DNA of 64,000 nucleotides. Origin: Sarea resinae. Taxonomy: Eukaryota. The notes under the pieces were generated by a model. It ran no database searches and was not told where the DNA came from. It worked only from the letters and a program-made list of their open reading frames with translations. Shown one piece after another: positions 21,863-34,507 of the stretch (position 1 is the first letter of the stretch; every line of letters begins with the position of its first letter). The position numbers and the translations under genes were made by a program. The DNA lies in assembly GCA_026026165.1 (NCBI GenBank), contig JAPEUD010000037.1:124001-188000 (forward strand), in the 5' to 3' direction.

Positions 21863-23727
21863 ATGGGGTAAGCCTTCCATCTGGGTGACGATGCGGCGTG
21901 CCGCCTCAACGCGCCTCGTATCAGTTTGCGCCTCGTGGAGGATATCGCTGACTTGGCCTCCGCTCCACAGTAAGGAAAAGACTCACATTAACGTCGTCGT
22001 TATCGGCCACGTCGACTCCGGAAAGTCGACCACTACCGGTAAGTCGAAAGCAATCTGCGCTCCCTTTGCGCGCAAACTTACAATGTTCTCTTCAGGTCAC
22101 TTGATCTACAAGTGCGGTGGTATTGACAAGCGTACCATTGAGAAGTTCGAGAAGGTAAGAATATCGGCCACATTTTCTTTCATTTTTCTCTTATCGCTGC
22201 CCCTCGTTGGCGGGCGCAATCTTTATGGTGGGGGAGGGGCACATACGCGCTAGGCGAGATTTGCGATCGCACTTTCATACTTTCGCCTATTGAGGCAGTC
22301 ACGCATGCCCTTCACAGTCCCCTTTGGCCAACCTCCTTTTCAACTTGCGTTTGATCAATCCCATCTTCAAGATACCATTGCGCTATAATGCGCCTCGTCG
22401 ATCATGCCGTCACTAACACATCAATAGGAAGCTGCCGAGTTGGGCAAGGGTTCCTTCAAGTACGCCTGGGTTCTTGACAAGCTAAAGGCTGAGCGTGAGC
22501 GTGGTATCACCATCGACATTGCTCTCTGGAAGTTCGAGACTCCCAAGTACTATGTCACCGTCATTGGTAAGTGATGTGCTGATTCTTTTCCACAACTTGA
22601 ATGCTTATCCTTCACTAGACGCCCCTGGTCATCGTGACTTCATCAAGAACATGATCACTGGTACCTCCCAGGCCGATTGCGCTATCCTTATTATCGCTGC
22701 CGGTACTGGTGAGTTCGAGGCTGGTATCTCCAAGGATGGCCAGACCCGTGAGCACGCTCTGCTCGCTTTCACCCTCGGTGTGAAGCAGCTCATCGTTGCC
22801 ATCAATAAGATGGACACCGCCAAGTGGGCCGAGGACCGTTACCTAGAAATCATCAAGGAGACTTCCAGCTTCATCAAGAAGGTTGGCTTCAACCCCAAGT
22901 CGGTTGCTTTCGTGCCGATTTCCGGTTTCAACGGTGACAACATGATCGAGCCCTCCACCAACTGCCCCTGGTACAAGGGTTGGGAGAAGGAGACCAAGGC
23001 CGGCAAGTCCAGCGGCAAGACTCTCCTCGAGGCCATCGATTCCATCGACCAGCCCACCCGTCCCCATGACAAGCCCCTCCGTCTTCCCCTCCAGGATGTT
23101 TACAAGATCGGCGGTATTGGCACTGTGCCCGTCGGCCGTGTCGAGACTGGCGTTATCAAGCCCGGCATGGTCGTTACCTTCGCTCCCCCTATGGTCACCA
23201 CCGAAGTCAAGTCCGTTGAGATGCACCACGAGCAGCTCAAGGAGGGTCTTCCAGGTGACAACGTCGGCTTCAACGTGAAGAACGTTTCCGTTAAGGAAAT
23301 CCGCCGTGGCAACGTTGCTGGTGACTCCAAGCAAGACCCCCCGAAGGGTGCCGAGTCGTTCAACGCCCAGGTCATCGTCCTCAACCACCCTGGTCAAATC
23401 GGTGCTGGTTACGCTCCAGTCCTCGACTGCCACACCGCCCACATTGCTTGCAAGTTCGCTGAGCTCTTGGAGAAGATCGACCGCCGTACCGGCAAGTCCA
23501 TCGAAGACGCTCCCAAGTTCATCAAGTCCGGTGACGCCTCCATCGTCAAGATGATCCCGTCCAAGCCCATGTGTGTCGAGTCCTTCACCGAGTACCCGCC
23601 CCTTGGTCGCTTCGCCGTCCGTGACATGCGTCAAACTGTCGCGGTAGGGGTAATCAAGAGTGTTCAGAAGTTAGAAGCCGGCCAGAAGCTCACCAAGGCG
23701 GCCGCGAAGAAACAGTCTGGTAAGTAA
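21863..23727 (+). CDS. tef1: Translation elongation factor 1-alpha; exons 21863-21867, 21971-22038, 22096-22154, 22428-22566, 22619-23727 (459 aa)
   Basis: '[24 protein letters not shown]', '[20 protein letters not shown]', '[21 protein letters not shown]'; strong codon bias. Confidence 0.99.
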
Positions 23728-24479
23728 ACGGAGTTCGTGGCTCATTTGGCTGCGGATTTGGTGCGGATTTGGTTGAGATACGATGCCTTTCTTTGCTCCT
23801 TTAGTGTCACATGGTCAATGATGAAATGATGGTTCGGGGCTTTGCAAATGCGCTTTCTAGATTACAAGTAGTAAAATACAAATCCTAGAGGCATCACTCT
23901 TCTATGCAATATGTGATGTGAGATCTGTAAATGGTTTAATCTGGTTCTTTCAATTTGGTTCTATGTAAATAAGGGACAATTGATACGACCGGAGCGCTAA
24001 GTAATCAGACTCGTCACGTGAGTCCTCACAAGTATCTGTCCTTCGCTTGAATCGTAGCGGTGGTGCATGGATGTCTGCCAAATACCCCTGGAGCAACTCA
24101 AGCAAATCCGGATTAGTATATCTGTGCTTCGTGCTTCCTAATTCGTACATCGATTAATCTCGACCTCGATCTCGACTGGCACGGTATTGATCCTCAGCTC
24201 AGGACAAGGACAGCACAGCACAGCGTATTGACTCCTGGACTCTGTATTAACAGTACTGCTCTCGGTATTGCTATCGCTCTTACTGTTGCAATTGCTCTCC
24301 CTGTCGCTAGCAATTCCCCGCATATATGTGGGCTAAGTAGGCATCCTAGTCATTGGCTGTATCAGAGCTCTGGCGGGAGAGGGGGCCGTCACAGTTTGCG
24401 GCCTCAGCACCGACGGCGGTGAACTTGCTGTCGCGGCGATAGAAGTCTGGCTACTTCGTACATCCAATCCAGTTCCGAC

Positions 24480-25520
24480 TCCTACTTTTGCGATTGCTTC
24501 TCTGCCGCCCACTTTATTTTCTTTGCCTTGAGTTCATCTCGTTCTTCATCCGTCATCGCCGCTTTTCGTTTTCGGGCCGATTCGCTTTCTCTCTTTCTTT
24601 TCTTTGCCAGGAATTCATCCCGTTCTTCATCCGTCATCGCCATTTTCGTTTTCGGGCCTGTGTCTCTCTTTTCTCTTCTTCTTTTCTCGCTGCTCTTCGT
24701 TTTCTTCTCTGTTCGTTTTCGCTGTCCCGCGTCTCTCTCTTCTCTTCTTCCTTTCTCGCTGTTCTTCTTCTCCTTCTCTGTTCATTTTCGCGCTCCCTTG
24801 TCTCTCGTTTCTCTTCTTCTGTCTTTCCTGCTCTAAGAGCTCTTCTCCTCTCCTTATATCTGCGCATATATTAGCGCTGCTTTTCTCTCGCCTCTTCCTT
24901 CTCCTCTGTCATCACAAGCGCTTTCTTCGCCTTGGGTTTTCTGCTTCTCGCGGCGTTTCCAGCTTTCAATTGCTTCAGTTCTTTCTCATTCATGTGGGCC
25001 CGTCTATTGATTTCATACGTGCGGAAATACTTGCGCTCCTCTTCCTTCCTCTCTTCGTCCCATTTTCCCTGTTTGATCATCCTGGAGGCCGCAACCTCCT
25101 CGTTATGCCTTTCACGTTCCTCGGCCGACCAGGCTGCCTGCTTTTCTCTTCTCTCTGCCCTCTTCAAGGGGGTCCAGTTCCTGTAGGACCGGTACCTTCG
25201 GAGTCTTTCTCCCGTCAACTCCGCTTCCTACTTCTTGAAATACTCGCGGTATTTCTTTAGTTCCAATTGCCTATCTATTGGAAGCCGGAGGTTTTCCACC
25301 AGCGGCGAATGGGTACACCCCCTGCCCGCCATTCCAGCCCGTCATCCGGCCGCATTTGAAGTAAGTCGCTGGAGACTCTTGTTGTGAAGACCGCTCCCAG
25401 CCAGGCTTATAATTGTGCTTATTATTTCTTTCTACATTACGCAAACGGACTTCCAACCACAAGCCATCTGATCTCCTCGAAGATACCGATATTGGCCAAA
25501 TCAGCCATCATGGCCCGTCT
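24480..25520 (-). pseudogene. C-terminal half of a GIY-YIG-family paralogue with stops/frameshifts and expanded internal repeats
   Basis: 'CTHSPLVENLRLPIDRQLELKKYREYFKK*EAELTGERLRRYRSYRNWTP...EKQR*YMRRYK' aligns by eye with 'CTHSPLAENLRLPIDTELRKKRYREYLKNW...EKQREYMRAYK' of 30203-31661. Confidence 0.85.
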
Positions 25521-25609: not shown

Positions 25610-25905
25610 ATATTCAAGGAGCCGCATTCGATAAAGCGGACAACGGTCTCCGCCATAGTGTCCGCAAAGAATCGAGTTCCTGAGGCCGCTTCGGAGAAGG
25701 TTTTGGAGGTGCAGGGGCCGCCCAGTGTTCTCCCCAGGCTGATTCGGATGGGTGAACGATATGGCATACGGAACAGCCATGGTGGAATTTTAGCCAGTGG
25801 TCTTTGAAAGCCGCATTCGACAAAGCGGATGACGGTTTCCGCCATGGTATCTGTGAAAGTGTACGTGCCTAAGGCCGCTTCGGGGAAGGTTTTGGAAGTA
25901 CAAGC
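25610..25905. repeat. Diverged ~95-bp direct repeat (two copies, ~25620 and ~25809)
   Basis: agccgcattcga(t/c)aaagcgga...aggccgcttcgg(a/g)gaaggttttgga present twice. Confidence 0.8.
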
Positions 25906-26504: not shown

Positions 26505-27240
26505 TATGGCTGACTTCTCGTACGATGCTAACAAGCTACCTCTTGGCGGAAACAATCAAGACTCGATCACCGTCCGAATGGCTCCAAGTAATTTGCGAAT
26601 TCACGCCGGAACCCGTTGAACGTGTCGTCGGAGGCCATTGGAGATTGTGCGTTTGCTCAATTTTCTAGGCTTCACTCATGTAGGATAGCATCAGGAGCGA
26701 ACATACCTTTTCTTACCGTCTCTGGAAGGGCGCTATTGCTGAAGAGCTGAAAATTTCTCGTAGCTCAGTGAGATGTGTTGGCTTCAAGAAGATCAATTCC
26801 ATCAGATGCTGAATGGACTCTGGTAAGGTGAATCCGAGATGGATCCAACACCGTCCCTGCGAGGATTGAAGAGTTAAAGTGTTGAAGAGCCGAAATTTGT
26901 ACTTTCGAGTAGGTCAGTGAGATATTTTGACTTCAATAAGATCAAGTCCATCAGACGCTGAACGGTCTCTGGTAAAGTGGATTCGAGAGGGATTCAACAC
27001 CGTCTCTGCAAGACCTAATAGCCCTTAAGTGAGAGGACACGGCTGACCCAAGCGTCTATGGGAATATTCTGACGACTGAAGCCCCGGCCATCATGCCTAC
27101 CTCCATGTAGGGTCGGCTATCAGATACATAAAGTGCCTTAGAGGGAGGCGCCGCGGGCACGAAAGGTCGAATATTTGAAAGACTGAGTAAATTCCCATAA
27201 GCTAGAGAGCCTCTCGCTCGAAGCCATAGTCTCTTAGTAT
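26505..27240 (+). pseudogene. N-terminal half of a GIY-YIG-family paralogue, inverted orientation, interrupted by an insertion
   Basis: 'LAETIKTRSPSEWLQVICEFTPEPVERVVGG' (~26540-26635) and 'DTADPSVYGNILTTE/PGHHAYLHVGSAIRYIKCLRGRRRGHE' (~27036-27165) match the intact gene's 'WAEIMKSRTPQEWLSLIGEYTPKPVKDLLGG' and 'ETAESGVYGHLLTTTDEGHHAHLYVGSATKFGHGLRHRRAEHE'. Confidence 0.82.
26738..27010. repeat. Diverged tandem duplication, two ~125-bp copies
   Basis: tgaagagc...tcagtgagat...aagatcaa.tccatcaga.gctgaa...caacaccgtc.ctgc at ~26740-26860 and ~26883-27009. Confidence 0.8.
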
Positions 27241-27344
27241 CCCTGTATGATCAAAGGGCTCACCGACTGTCCTATTTTTGCTCCCTTCTCGCTCTGTATC
27301 GGATCGTCACTAGATCTGAACGGTTTGAGATCGTCTTTCTTAGC

Positions 27345-28480
27345 TCTGTTCTCGCTAACATTCAATCGTTAGTCTGCTTCGGATCTCACTCTTTCCATTT
27401 ACCGTCTGTTTGGTACCTGATATTGGCATAGTGATGCCTGATATTGGCATAGTCACTTGCGGTGAATCCTCCGCCAATCTTGGAAAACGAACAGCATGTC
27501 ATCGGATAGCCCCATGATGGATCCGATCCTGATCCACCTTCAAACCGCAGAGAAAGCTGATGCATTAGAAGAACGTGCCACGAGTAGGGACGTGGATCAT
27601 CCTGTTGGCATAGCATACATAGCCAGAGCACACACACATTTTGATTATTATCTTGACCTCAAGCCAAGCCAAGCGAAGCCCGTCGACGACTATCTTTCTT
27701 TGGGGTCAAAGGATGGAAAAATCCATCGAAGGTAGCAACACAAGCAAATCTGAATTAATGCAGTTCTGACTTCTATTTCTGGCTCGCTTCTCCGCCCATT
27801 TCTTTCTTTTCTTCGTTCAGCTCGTTCTTTCTCGGTCACCGCCGCTTTTCGTTTTCTGCTGTTTAGTTCTCGCGCTTTCTTTTCTCGATTTTCTCTTCCT
27901 CTGTCTTTTCTCGCTAATATTGAATCGTTAATCTGCTTCGGATCCTAGTCCTTCCATTTACCGTCTGTCTGATGCCTGATATTGGCATGGTCACTTGGGG
28001 TAAATCCCCACCAACCTTGAAGAATGAATAGCATTTCATCGGATTTGTTCTACGATCGATCTGTTCCTGATCGACCTTCAAGCCGCAAAGGAAGCTAATG
28101 CATCAGTATCGAGATGTCATCGGGCGCTTTCTCGAGCATGTCGAAGATATCGCACCTCTCCCCGTCGTTAGAAAAGGGCCTGAATTTGGACTTCTTCTTA
28201 CCTGGGCGAGTGCATCCTGCCTCTGGAATTGTCTATCGCATTCCAGAGGCAGGATGCATTCTAGGCAACCATGGTGCTCTGGTCGAAGAGATGGAAGTTC
28301 TAGAATGCCCAAATAGACCATTCAGGACAGCAGCTTACGACGATATGGGTGACCAGTAGATTCGTGTGGACCACGTAAATCTGATCCGAGTCGCAGCCGC
28401 GAACTTTGAAGACGTCGGAGAGCAGAAGACTGAGGACAAATTAGAACGTGTCACGGGTAGGGACGTGGACCAACCTGTTC
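27345..28480. repeat. Diverged direct duplication (27345-27605 vs 27908-28100 plus 28440-28480), with a further GIY-YIG-family tail fragment at ~27770-27915(-)
   Basis: tctcgctaa.att.aatcgtta.tctgcttcggatc...ttccatttaccgtctgt...gatattggcat and gtagggacgtgga.ca.cctgtt each occur twice. Confidence 0.78.
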
Positions 28481-28689
28481 TTAATGAAACGAGTCGACAA
28501 AGAGGACCCAAAAAACAAAACTCTTTACCGCCAAGCGGGCCTGTTAGCGGAGGCTGTCTTCACGGCGTGGGTCGGGATACTCTCTAAATCTTCTGAGCCT
28601 TGATTCTCTATGAATAGGCAGCCGAAGGTTTTCAGTCAAGGGCGAGTGTGTGCATACCCCACGCCATTCAACCTCGTCGTATGGGTATA

Positions 28690-28930
28690 TATTAGTCATC
28701 GCTGCTTTTCGTTTTCTTTTGTTTTTGTTCTCACGCTTTCTTGTCTCAAATTTCTCTTCCTCTGTCTTTCCAGTTCTAAGTATTTATCTTCTCTCTTTGT
28801 TTTACTCACGCATGTAACTTCTTTGCTTCTCTTTTGCCTTTTCCTTCTCTTCTTCAGTCGTCTCTAAAGCTTTCTCAACCCATTTGCTTGTGTTGCTAGC
28901 ATATACTTCCTTTTGGCTTGGTCTCCGATA
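28690..28930 (-). pseudogene. Additional fragment of the GIY-YIG-family K/E/R-rich tail
   Basis: 'KALETTEEEKEKAKEKQRSYMRE*NKERR*ILRTGKTEEEK' versus 'KAKTMTEEEKEEKREKQREYMRAYKDRRRELRA'. Confidence 0.72.
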
Positions 28931-30062: not shown

Positions 30063-30197
30063 GCAGGGCTTTAAGCAACTGCGTGCGGTAGGAATGGCAG
30101 GGCTTTCAGCAGCTGCGTGCGGTAGGAATGGCAGGGCTTTAGCAACTGCGTGCGGTAGGAATGGCAGGGCTTTCAGCAACTGCGTGCGGTAGGAATG
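30063..30197. repeat. 34-bp tandem repeat x4
   Basis: Unit gcagggcttt(a/c)agcaactgcgtgcggtaggaatg, 5 bp past the stop codon of the GIY-YIG gene. Confidence 0.95.
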
Positions 30198-30202
30198 ACT
30201 TC

Positions 30203-31661
30203 TCATTTCCCCGTCTTAGCTCTTTTTTCAGCGGCTTTTGCTCTCGACTTGGCATTCTTCTCTGCCCTCTCTTCTGCTGTCATAGCGGCGTTCTTCTTAT
30301 TTTGCGCCTCTTGGTCTCTGCGCTGCTGTGCTGCTGTTTTTTCAGGGTTTGTTGCTCTCAGCTCCCTTCTCCGGTCTTTGTACGCTCGCATGTACTCCCT
30401 CTGTTTCTCCCGTTTTTCCTCCTTTTCCTCCTCGGTCATTGTTTTGGCCTTCTTCTCTTTATATTTCTTTGACTTAGCCGCATTTGCAGCCTTAAATGCT
30501 TTAAGCTCTTCTTCATTCATCTGCTCCTTTTGGTTCTTCTGGTATGTGCGCATGTAATTCCGCTCATCCTCCTGTCTCTCCTCGTCCCAATTATCTCGCT
30601 TCCTTTTCCTCGACTCGGCCACTTGGCTGTTATGTGCCGACCTCTCTTCTGCCGTCCATGCGGCTTGCTTCGCCCTTCTCTCTTCCTGCTTCATCGGCGT
30701 CCATTTTCGGTACGCTTGGTACCTTGTCAGGGCTGCCCCTGAGAGGTTCGCAACCCAATTTTTGAGGTATTCTCGGTACCGTTTCTTCCGCAGTTCGGTA
30801 TCAATCGGCAGTCTCAAGTTCTCAGCCAAGGGCGAGTGGGTGCAGGCTCCCCTCCAGAACGTGCCATCATACGGGCATAGTTGCAAGAGGTTATCGTGTG
30901 CAACGTTGTGGTAAAAGGCCCCCAGCCACGATGTGTATATTGCCTCAGCAAGGAGGCACACGGACCTAATGGTCAGCTTTTCCTCTTGGCCCTCTGGATT
31001 ACCAGGCATCTGGAACAGAGTCACCCAGGTCCCTTCCCGGCGGACATTCTTCTGAGCCATGAGGCTGTGATGATACCCTGGCCTAAATTGCTCGATTAGC
31101 TTGGCTATCTCCGGTCGATCGAAACGACTTTGCCATATTGGCCAGCAAAGACAATAGACTCTCATGAGACCTGCCTCCGAGAGTGTATCCAAACAAAACC
31201 AGAGTCTAGAGGCTCTGTACACAATCAAACGATTATGCGTCATGATGAGATACGATACAGATATAAAAGACAGTTACATACTGGGTTTTTGCTACGTTCG
31301 GGTGTTCATGTTCAGCCCGTCTATGGCGAAGACCGTGCCCGAATTTCGTTGCCGATCCGACGTATAGATGGGCATGATGCCCTTCATCTGTCGTCGTTAG
31401 CAGGTGCCCGTATACTCCGGATTCCGCAGTCTCTGCCCATTGAAGGGACTTGAATTGCTCTATGGTTGGCGCTGCCAACCCGCCCAGTAAGTCTTTCACT
31501 GGCTTCGGTGTATACTCGCCGATAAGAGAGAGCCATTCCTGGGGAGTCCGAGACTTCATGATCTCGGCCCAGGTCTGCGACATATAGGTCAAAATTAGCA
31601 GGGAGAATATCTTCTCGAGCCGTTCGGCGAAGAGCATCATATTATCGTTTGAGTTACTCAT
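30203..31661 (-). CDS. Intact GIY-YIG-type endonuclease-like protein with K/E/R-rich C-terminus; exons 31661-31282, 31214-30203 (463 aa)
   Basis: 'SGVYGHLL...HLYVGSAT...GLRHRRAEH' fits the GIY-YIG pattern (GVY, YVG, downstream R and H); 67-nt GTATGT...TACAG intron joins two ORFs in frame (1392 nt). Confidence 0.7.
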
Positions 31662-33289: not shown

Positions 33290-33461
33290 GCGCTTTAGCG
33301 CAGAGGGCGCTTTAGCGCAGAGGGTGTGCCGTAGCAGAGTGGGCGAGGCGCTTTAGCGCAGAGGGCGCTTTAGCGCAGAGAGTGTGCCGTAGCAGAGTGG
33401 GCGAGGCGCTTTAGCGCAGAGGGCGTGCCGTAGCAGAGTGGGCGAGGCGCTTTAGCGCAGT
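33290..33461. repeat. Compound tandem repeat containing six copies of gcgctttagcgc
   Basis: Units gcgctttagcgcagagg and gtgtgccgtagcagagtgggcgag; overlaps the stop codon of the zinc-knuckle ORF. Confidence 0.93.
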
Positions 33462-34507
33462 GGGTGATCGCGTTCGGGACGTCTCTCTTCGTCGCTGAAG
33501 TCTATTTTCTCATCGAGGTCGAACATATCCTCGTCTTCATCCGCAGGCAGAGCTATCAGAGCTGCCGCTTCCGCCTGCCGATTGAGCTCTCTCTGTTGAG
33601 CGGGAGCTAGACGTACCACCGGCGGAGCTATCTCTTCTGCCGCGGGAGCAGGGTCTTGCTGGGCAGGGGCTTGTTGGGCAGGGGCTTGTTGGGCAGGGGC
33701 ATCTGGCTGCTCTTGCTGGGGTGCCCCAGCCCGAAGGACAGGGTCCTGAGGACGCTGTTGATTCCGGGGCGGGGGATGGTTGCGGGCGGGTGGGGGACCG
33801 CGGTTCTCCCTCTGGGGACGACGATCCTGGGGCGGCTGGTTGGCCGGGCGATTGGGAGCAGGGCGTTGGCGGCCTCTCTGCTCTGGCTCACGGGCTCTGT
33901 AACCTCGAGCTTGGTGGCGGACGGGAGAGCGAGACCGAGAACGCGGGCGACTTGTAACACCCTGCACCGCCTGCATCATCTCACGCGCAAGGGCTATCCT
34001 CTCCAGTTCAACATCGTTAGAATTGAGCCGGGCGTTGCTTTCCTCGCGGCGGCGGCGGGGTTGCGGGGCAGCTCCTCGAACCTCATCCTCGCCCTGATCC
34101 TGACGACAGTACATCCATTGATGCCCTCGTCGCCCACACGTGCGGCATAGCGCTCTGCAGGGTGGGGCGTGGAAACCATCGCACCTAGTGCAACGCCGTG
34201 CTATCTGTTGATAGTTTGGGATGCACTCGCCCAAGTGGCCTCGGCCGCATGTTGGGCACAATGGTCTGCCTCTGTTGTTTCTGCCCTGCTCGCGGCGCTG
34301 CTGCTGTTGCTGTGGCTGTGGCTCTGGCTGCTGTTGTTGCTGCTGCTGCGGCTGTTGCTGTTGCTGTTGCTGTTGCTGGGGCTGCTGTGGCTGCTGTTGC
34401 TGTTGCCCTTGTTGCTGCTGTTGCTGTGGCTGCTGCTGCCGCTGGCGGCGACGCTGCAAGAGTTCGAGAAGAATTTCCTCTTCTTGATCTGGAGTGAGGT
34501 TATTCAT
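33452..34507 (-). CDS. Gag-like polyQ / triple CCHC zinc-knuckle protein (351 aa)
   Basis: CPTCGRGHLGEC, CTRCDGFHAPPC, CRTCGRRGHQWMYC; polyQ N-terminus, RS/P-rich tail; uninterrupted ORF. Confidence 0.65.
   Translation of the reverse strand: MNNLTPDQEEEILLELLQRRRQRQQQPQQQQQQGQQQQQPQQPQQQQQQQQQPQQQQQQQPEPQPQQQQQRREQGRNNRGRPLCPTCGRGHLGECIPNYQQIARRCTRCDGFHAPPCRALCRTCGRRGHQWMYCRQDQGEDEVRGAAPQPRRRREESNARLNSNDVELERIALAREMMQAVQGVTSRPRSRSRSPVRHQARGYRAREPEQRGRQRPAPNRPANQPPQDRRPQRENRGPPPARNHPPPRNQQRPQDPVLRAGAPQQEQPDAPAQQAPAQQAPAQQDPAPAAEEIAPPVVRLAPAQQRELNRQAEAAALIALPADEDEDMFDLDEKIDFSDEERRPERDHPLR

Follow-up and report, generated by a model that had tools for sequence, protein, structure and literature searches.

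A recoded 3′ end of tef1 beside a nest of GIY-YIG-like nuclease genes in Sarea resinae: a possible WHO-like or mORF-like nuclear homing locus

Why should an essential, highly expressed and conserved gene abandon its codon preferences abruptly, just ahead of its stop codon, and is this connected with the nuclease genes that lie directly downstream of it? The question is raised by tef1, the gene for EF-1alpha, in a 64-kb stretch of DNA from the filamentous ascomycete Sarea resinae (contig JAPEUD010000037.1 of assembly GCA_026026165.1, positions 124,001 to 188,000 of the forward strand; the whole stretch is hereafter called the window, and all coordinates count from its first letter). We find that the last 28 codons of tef1 follow a different coding regime from the rest of the gene, and that a nest of one intact and at least three decayed members of a nuclease family follows within 8 kb. 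This suggests that a mobile element rewrote the end of tef1; that a nuclease cut the gene, that its tail was replaced rather than mutated, and that these two facts are linked, we infer. The parts of tef1 that matter here are as follows.

21863-23727, plus strand: tef1 (EF-1alpha) gene, five exons, with the stop codon TAA at 23725-23727
21863-21867, 21971-22038, 22096-22154, 22428-22566 and 22619-23727, plus strand: the five tef1 exons, from reading of the sequence
23641-23727, plus strand: recoded tail of 28 codons and the stop codon, distinguished by codon usage and as an amino-acid outlier
23641-23652, plus strand: core patch GCG GTA GGG GTA in the conserved AVGV, four consecutive synonymous purine-ending codons
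23728-23885, plus strand: tef1 3′ untranslated region (UTR), its end probably near 23885, where a metatranscriptome contig stops without a loose end
23744-23773, plus strand: 11-nt tandem repeat in the tef1 3′UTR, from a tandem-repeat search

The spliced tef1 coding sequence of 1380 nt translates cleanly into an EF-1alpha of 459 amino acids (459 codons), which is 89-91% identical to the best fungal EF-1alpha matches. From 23641 the frame runs GCG GTA GGG GTA ATC AAG AGT GTT CAG AAG TTA ..., just as a preliminary description of this DNA had read it. That description had also named six codons (GCG, GTA, GGG, AGT, TTA and AAA) as missing from exon 5 before this point and frequent after it, and the counts agree: they occur in 0/340 exon-5 codons ahead of 23641 and, over the gene as a whole, in 0/431 codons of the tef1 body versus 9/28 codons of the tail (Fisher p = 3e-12). 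With TCT included, 10 of the 28 tail codons are absent from the rest of tef1 in a leave-window-out scan; the 404 other 28-codon segments, those without overlap with the tail, hold at most two codons unused elsewhere in the gene (none in 291 segments, one in 100 and two in 13). A sliding-window scan of codon adaptation along tef1, which the preliminary description had proposed, gives the same picture, with a geometric-mean relative adaptiveness of 0.25 in the tail versus a minimum of 0.60 in the other segments. Codons with A in the third position make up 10/340 of exon 5 upstream of the junction versus 5/28 downstream, and the best maximum-likelihood split of the gene into two regimes falls at 23641, with 23632-23638 almost as good. 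The recoding of tef1 is real, abrupt and far beyond chance.

The regime beyond the junction is a familiar one. Taking nine long open reading frames (ORFs) of the window (4504 codons) as background, the log-likelihood of the tail is -33.8 under background usage, -35.8 under the usage of the nuclease gene described below and -50.2 under that of the tef1 body; the log-likelihood ratio of background over tef1 body is +16.4 in the tail, against a maximum of -8.0 in all other segments of tef1. The codon usage of the tail thus matches the ordinary genes of the window and not the tef1 body, the window holding no other obviously highly expressed gene to set beside tef1. The core patch goes further. Its four codons are, as had been claimed, synonymous changes within the conserved AVGV motif; in the tef1 body the codons for A, V and G are pyrimidine-ending in 100/105 cases and the four patch codons are never used, and all four would occur together with a chance of about 0.0014 even under background (ordinary-gene) usage. 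The AVGV patch looks directional, not merely relaxed.

Could the junction be a product of assembly or binning, a chimeric contig joined within conserved tef1 to the gene end of another organism? The sample allows for this: the NCBI record names a protein of the contig as coming from a metagenome-assembled genome (MAG), and the sequencing run that is the likely source also contains, at depth 2-5, pieces of tef1 from other fungi, so that it was not a pure culture. One of these low-depth fragments has an ordinary tail start (TCT GTT GCC AAG TCC GAG AAG). An independently built Logan contig from the likely source run (3462 nt, depth 321) covers 22466-24400, including the junction; it crosses 23640/23641 with 0 differences, and its depth equals that of the upstream contig (321 versus 335). 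A library from an unrelated study, moreover, has a 270-nt contig over 23604-23885. We therefore reject an assembly chimera, and consider an artefact of this kind scarcely credible.

This second contig comes from a wood-decay metatranscriptome, in which its depth is 923. It differs from the window by 15 mismatches and by one 11-nt gap at 23751, which is a repeat unit, and is about 95% identical overall; six of the 15 mismatches are displayed, and the sharing that we claim concerns the tail from about 23659 onwards and the UTR, not the AVGV codons. The differences displayed in the tail, 23694 C>A and 23706 G>T, are both synonymous. A lineage about 5% diverged therefore carries, and most simply also transcribes, the same tail and 3′UTR, and with the tail present in a second sample the recoding of tef1 is not private to this assembly. 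As to the repeat at 23744-23773, one unit fewer in the metatranscriptome relative is a simple length polymorphism between the two lineages. The locus was found in the likely source run only (share of its words 1.00); the next best run reaches 0.13, and further runs have 0.05-0.08 of the stretch, which we read as the conserved tef1 exons of other fungi. The metatranscriptome gave no cover over the tef1 5′UTR, an absence from which nothing follows.

Three simple causes were considered and rejected. The end of the tail, TCT GGT AAG TAA, contains GGTAAGT, and might conceal an intron leading to an alternative last exon; the metatranscriptome contig is colinear with 23604-23885 save for the 11-nt unit and there is no second tail-coding piece downstream, so the hidden intron is rejected. 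Leakage of repeat-induced point mutation (RIP) from the repeated island is rejected because the ends of the AVGV codons are purines where those of the body are pyrimidines, so that the changes would be transversions, and because the RIP indices of the island are normal (TpA/ApT of 0.62-0.79 in the nuclease copies). An RNA structure is rejected because 23611-23760 folds no better than its shuffles (z = -0.04). That fold also tells against a broader possibility, namely that the rare codons are functional in themselves, whether by making translation pause ahead of termination, through an RNA structure or as a site for regulatory binding at the end of the mRNA; the display of only synonymous differences in the tail of the metatranscriptome relative would fit such a role, which would still leave the amino-acid divergence of the tail unexplained, and we regard it as very improbable. 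We know of no comparable recoding in fungal tef1, no systematic search for one having been made.

The preliminary description had found the encoded tail atypical for fungal EF-1alpha as well, and this holds when it is set against the 115 closest listed EF-1alpha proteins, of which 114 have RQTVAVG[VI]IK and 108 of these have tails of 15-32 residues; the set is one without a close relative of Sarea resinae. KVTK is present in 101/108 of these tails, and the KLTK of the window's tail in 0/108; 103/108 end in KK, whereas the window's tail ends in GK. Of the 94 distinct tails, the one most similar to it reaches 59% identity, compared with a median of 91% between a tail and its nearest neighbour. 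A region-based search found, among the 8000 matches listed, no protein with the window's tail, only chance look-alikes in non-fungal proteins. On these alignments the tail is clearly derived from tef1, yet an amino-acid outlier among fungal tails. About seven EF-1alpha entries of other Pezizomycotina read through past KVTK or KV into VS..., which is the signature of an unannotated terminal intron; as the tef1 of the window has no intron after its KLTK, its tail is the intron-less version.

An outlying tail might of course have arisen by lineage-specific drift in place, of codons and residues alike, in a weakly constrained part of the protein, with the nuclease island beside it by coincidence. 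EF-1alpha tails do vary among fungi (median identity to all others 68%), the comparison lacks a close relative (best body identity 89-91%), and the tail, shared as it is with the second sample at about 95% identity, may be an old and fixed one. Drift would not, however, be expected to set in abruptly inside the invariant AVGVIK, nor to exchange four neighbouring optimal codons, by transversions, for codons that are never used in the 431 positions upstream, which have all the while remained optimised. The lysine codons of the tail are AAG in 6/7 cases, so selection on codons has not simply vanished, and the tef1 transcript appears highly abundant in the metatranscriptome, given the contig depth of 923. 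We consider drift rather improbable.

The preliminary description had already pointed to a nuclease gene next door. The island beside tef1 is real, and it is more WHO-like (see below) than was then known, with at least three diverged, stop-riddled copies in addition to the intact gene:

30203-31661, minus strand: intact GIY-YIG-like nuclease gene of 463 codons, from sequence and reading frames
31661-31282 (exon 1), 31281-31215 (intron of 67 nt, GTATGT..CAG) and 31214-30203 (exon 2), minus strand: the parts of this gene
24521-25452, minus strand: decayed copy 1 (C-terminal two thirds), convergent with tef1, found by tblastn
26546-27607, plus strand: decayed copy 2 (N-terminal half, with the GVY..YVGSA region), interrupted and stop-containing, found by tblastn
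28445-28860, mixed strands: decayed copy 3 and rearranged fragments (28445-28582 on the plus strand, 28699-28577 on the minus strand, and remnants of the C-terminal repeats to about 28860)
30063-30197, no strand assigned: 34-bp tandem repeat, 4 copies with 95% matches, directly 3′ of the nuclease stop codon

Part of the intact gene is annotated by NCBI as a hypothetical protein of the Sarea resinae MAG. Copy 1, which comes with its 3′ end to within about 0.8 kb of the tef1 stop, is 54% identical to the intact copy over 209 amino acids (E 2e-54), with 4 in-frame stops and an extra piece at 24682-24521. Copy 2 is made up of tblastn pieces at 26546-26635 (53%), 26994-27077, 27086-27175 (53%) and 27557-27607, and part of it is repeated at 27904-28480 (repeat families D11, D13 and D15) by a local segmental duplication. 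The pieces of copy 3 have 43% and 61% identity to exon-2 residues 56-100 and 109-149 by tblastn, and repeat families D2, D5 and D7 tie it to copy 1. When both nuclease exons were used as tblastn queries, further copies appeared only between tef1 and the intact gene and none elsewhere in the 64-kb window. The cluster spans 24.5-31.7 kb. Its copies share only about 54% protein identity and have diverged beyond what blastn can align; the island is therefore a nest in which one intact gene is accompanied by three or more decayed members of the same nuclease family, old or heterogeneous.

Some further features of the island may be recorded. The spacer between nuclease relics 1 and 2 holds a 189-bp tandem duplication (86-87% identity) at 25620-25902. 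Beyond the intact gene, a glutamine-rich ORF at 33452-34507 on the minus strand has three CCHC-like cysteine/histidine knuckles and no Pfam match, and 58/41-bp tandem repeats stand ahead of it at 33290-33464; this ORF could be a host gene or a gag-like remnant that marks the far edge of the island. The C-terminus of the nuclease (30206-30271, minus strand, ...AEKNAKSRAKAAEKRAKTGK) is weakly like EF-1alpha tails (E 0.008, with 1/100 queries) and ends in GK, as the tef1 tail does; it is K/A-rich, and the likeness is probably due to chance.

A nest of this kind could be a bystander. The terminus of tef1 may have been replaced by recombination unconnected with homing, for example in the repair that followed insertion of a transposon or another element, or by ectopic conversion from a decayed tef1 fragment or a retrocopy, in a junk-rich region where nuclease genes merely happen to lie. 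A patch from a non-optimised, tef1-derived copy is all that the sharp change-point and the background-like codons would need. The region 24-33 kb is indeed rich in tandem and dispersed repeats, no tef1 was seen linked to three other members of the nuclease family, and the tail is intron-less where several other Pezizomycotina seem to carry an intron after KVTK, which would suit a cDNA-derived donor. Such recombination leaves unexplained, however, why four diverged copies of one nuclease family should lie here and nowhere else in the window, and why the patch should start inside the most conserved motif with 4/4 purine-ending codons; nor was a donor copy found in the 64-kb window. We hold this explanation to be unlikely, though it deserves to be taken seriously.

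What kind of nuclease, then, is encoded beside tef1? The intact gene has the motifs GVY...(15 aa)...LYVGSA, GL.HRR and LAE, and the alignment of the family shows the blocks GVY, YVGSA, GL..R, LAE..T.WLGA and SHNPL. Across 31 aligned sequences GVY always keeps its G, and YVGS is nearly invariant at its Y, G and S; R114 of GL..R is invariant in the 7 close sequences and the E of LAE (exon-2 residue 90) in 10 sequences. These last two presumably correspond to R27 and E75 of I-TevI. An AlphaFold model of the Piccolia homologue P0126, which is 42% identical to exon 1 and has the same architecture (mean pLDDT, a measure of model confidence, 80.8), served for a structural comparison against 48,161 chains. 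The top match was the catalytic domain of I-TevI (1ln0_A; root-mean-square deviation 2.3 A over 86/92 residues, 24% identity) with a Z of 6.9, a score that is 'middling' on the scale of the tool and below the comfort level of 8, and that was obtained with a homologue; the GIY-YIG domains of UvrC (Z 5.1) and T4 EndoII (Z 4.9) also matched, amid unrelated helical matches to the C-terminal tail. The ESM Atlas gave a GIY-YIG lead (score 0.88) for exon 1 only and nothing for exon 2. Pfam produced sub-threshold DUF123 hits at the GVY..YVGSA site in 6/16 family members (17.4-20.7 bits, with a cut-off of 25), DUF123 being presumably a member of the GIY-YIG clan. No LAGLIDADG or zinc-finger family was found, either by Pfam on the window and family proteins or by the structure search; a sequence-profile search of the PDB returned no nuclease, and a protein search with exon 2 matched its own NCBI record alone. 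To judge by motifs and model, the family is very probably GIY-YIG.

Searched exhaustively by HMMER, exon 1 recovered 152 cluster representatives at E <= 1e-3 (34 at E <= 1e-10). Ten clusters that were looked up have 1-3 members each, and three of these were named, as Aplosporella prunicola, a Piccolia ochrophora MAG and Boeremia exigua. By these counts this is a diverse, low-copy Pezizomycotina family and not a high-copy transposon. Among 16 members one has a significant HTH_38 domain and one has Myb domains; the family members thus carry varied DNA-binding modules, as site-specific nucleases do.

Elements that reside beside a host gene and replace its 3′ end have been described in two settings. 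In a recent preprint (Osborne, Monnin and Wolfe 2026, 10.64898/2026.08.13.744650), WHO elements are placed beside inteins and homing introns as a third, much rarer category of homing element, encoding LAGLIDADG enzymes and described only in Torulaspora. Diverged endonuclease genes and pseudogenes cluster downstream of the essential, highly expressed FBA1; within these clusters even the most similar pair reaches no more than 55% identity, and the copy next to FBA1 may be a pseudogene. The 3′ half of FBA1 is replaced by a cleavage-resistant variant, its target site being in an arms race even at the enzyme's cost (10.64898/2026.08.13.744650). According to Coughlan et al. 2020 (PMC7282813), the conversion tracts induced by WHO reach 106-306 bp in the direction of the stop codon but only 5-14 bp the other way.

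The tef1 locus resembles that of WHO at FBA1 (Torulaspora, Lachancea) in several respects. In both, diverged nuclease genes and pseudogenes lie directly downstream of an essential, highly expressed and conserved gene; the copy nearest the host gene can be a pseudogene, and the 3′ part of the host gene is sharply unlike its 5′ part. The divergence of the copies is also alike (about 54% protein identity here), and in both cases resistance is possible through synonymous changes in a conserved stretch, traded against optimality, with the WHO conversion tracts running towards the stop. The two differ, however, in the enzyme, which is GIY-YIG-like here and, in WHO, a LAGLIDADG, intein-like, HO-related protein with a zinc finger; the nuclease of the window, having neither LAGLIDADG nor zinc finger, is not a member of the WHO family, and the comparison concerns a possible working mode. 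They differ too in extent, with about 28 codons and the UTR altered here and half the gene in WHO, and in that no relic host-gene fragments were found here. The host here is a filamentous ascomycete rather than a budding yeast.

The second setting is mitochondrial. Mobile ORF (mORF) elements insert together with a foreign piece of C-terminal coding sequence, the cases given being atp6 of Allomyces macrogynus and atp6, atp9, cox2 and nad3 of Glomus sp.; the atp9 element of Glomus encodes a GIY-YIG endonuclease (PMC3630166). An endonuclease ORF with a replacement C-terminal piece would be common to these elements and to the tef1 locus, the expressed hybrid gene being a feature of mORFs and their atp9 case being GIY-YIG. 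Unlike the present locus, mORFs are mitochondrial, their ORF is usually in phase with or abuts the host gene, and the native C*-terminus is kept downstream. The tef1 locus belongs to the nucleus; its nuclease genes stand apart from the host gene and are in part convergent with it, a spliceosomal-type intron interrupts the intact copy, and nothing of a native C-terminus is left.

A third comparison is offered by I-TevI and the free-standing GIY-YIG enzymes (Seg proteins) of T-even phages, with which the window's family probably shares a catalytic fold, by the match of the homologue's model, and has in common a modular arrangement in which the catalytic domain is joined by a distinct region presumed to bind DNA. 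Seg enzymes of the free-standing kind cleave a neighbouring gene in genomes without the enzyme, and co-conversion of flanking sequence accompanies their spread. The family studied here, in contrast, is eukaryotic and nuclear and has no significant Pfam GIY-YIG match, and its C-terminal helical repeats, rich in K, R, E and W, differ from the known DNA-binding modules of I-TevI.

We propose, tentatively, that the tef1 3′ end is the site of a nest of nuclear homing-type elements, with a GIY-YIG-type nuclease as their basis. Nucleases of the Pezizomycotina family would have landed repeatedly just downstream of tef1, giving rise to the one intact gene and the three or more relics. Their target would be the most conserved DNA near the end of the gene, the codons for QTVAVGVIK, within which the core patch at 23641-23652 is the candidate for a site made cleavage-resistant. 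The occupied allele would owe its protection to its 3′ end, where from about 23641 onwards it has another version of the tef1 tail, one that either: arrived with the element by asymmetric gene conversion, running from the break towards the stop codon; or was selected in place during an arms race. This version would still encode a working EF-1alpha tail, with AVGV written in four purine-ending codons and with the codon usage of an ordinary gene. As a variant, a decayed relic tail may have been re-installed by recombination within the cluster, which would also explain why no relic remains. That the locus is a nuclear homing locus of WHO-like or mitochondrial-mORF-like kind, at which tef1 had its 3′ end either exchanged or altered under selection for resistance to cleavage, seems to us quite possible, if somewhat short of an even chance.

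Several observations weigh against this homing proposal. WHO and mORF elements often leave relic host-gene ends; searches of the island and the rest of the 64-kb window by tblastn with its own exon 5, by a degenerate DNA pattern allowing 3 mismatches, by a peptide-motif scan and with 100 EF-1alpha C-termini found no relic of a native tef1 3′ end that had been displaced. Decay or deletion, both of which the WHO papers describe too, could have erased a relic no longer than 90 bp. A distance of 6.5 kb separates the intact nuclease gene from the tef1 stop, and the copy closest to tef1 is dead, so that current protection or homing is not evident. Three family members with flanks, on metagenome contigs of 1.9-2.4 kb, have no tef1 beside them; contigs this short say little on linkage. 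No unoccupied allele was seen in the sequencing runs searched, of which the likely source run alone holds the locus; an exact-pattern scan of the metagenome contigs of the Joint Genome Institute for the recoded motif gave 0 matches; and an old feature, fixed throughout the lineage, would account just as well for the presence of this tail in a lineage about 5% diverged. As to the enzyme, the window copies read THSPL where the family has SHNPL (S in place of N), Pfam assigned 0 families to either nuclease exon ORF at E <= 0.1, and Foldseek with the P0126 model returned nothing at E <= 0.001, only weak GIY-YIG rows (E 1.5-4), beside the middling structural Z already mentioned.

The preliminary description had taken 23640/23641 for a cleavage or replacement junction of the neighbouring nuclease island. 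As a boundary in codon usage it stands, by its sharp change-point and the background- or nuclease-like codons that follow, and the cluster next to it is a real, GIY-YIG-like one; the part of the claim that ties junction to nuclease is one that we still infer, with neither a tef1 relic in the island nor tef1 on the three family contigs to strengthen it.

Considering the island in its entirety, we also put forward, with more doubt than confidence, a larger hypothesis: that this is a second, independently evolved class of WHO-like nuclear homing elements, in filamentous ascomycetes, which would use a previously undescribed GIY-YIG family, target a conserved stretch of tef1, and carry or select a cleavage-resistant end. 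Serial invasions and an arms race would then have built the nuclease graveyard and pushed tef1 to non-optimal codons and an aberrant tail. Searches of open-access full text and bioRxiv did not turn up a GIY-YIG homing element of the nucleus, whether at tef1 or in Pezizomycotina; nearly all the titles returned dealt with mitochondrial genomes.

The end of tef1 is also of practical concern, as this gene is a standard fungal barcode and phylogenetic marker. The recoded motif (23632-23658) is presumably the annealing site of the widely used reverse tef1 primer EF1-2218R, where four third-position changes could hamper amplification in this lineage; more generally, a mobile or recoded tef1 3′ end could cause primer failure or a conflicting phylogenetic signal. 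Should the link between nuclease and tail fail, what would remain is a patch replacement that is well documented, though without an explanation so far, in the last codons of a core housekeeping gene. Should it hold, WHO- and mORF-type elements would gain a new nuclease superfamily, a new host gene and a new fungal subphylum, and the fungal nuclease family of 152 clusters would gain a testable role and become a source of new long-site nucleases. Replacement of the 3′ end of a host gene would then be a recurrent strategy of nuclear selfish DNA, with a GIY-YIG counterpart at tef1 in a filamentous fungus.

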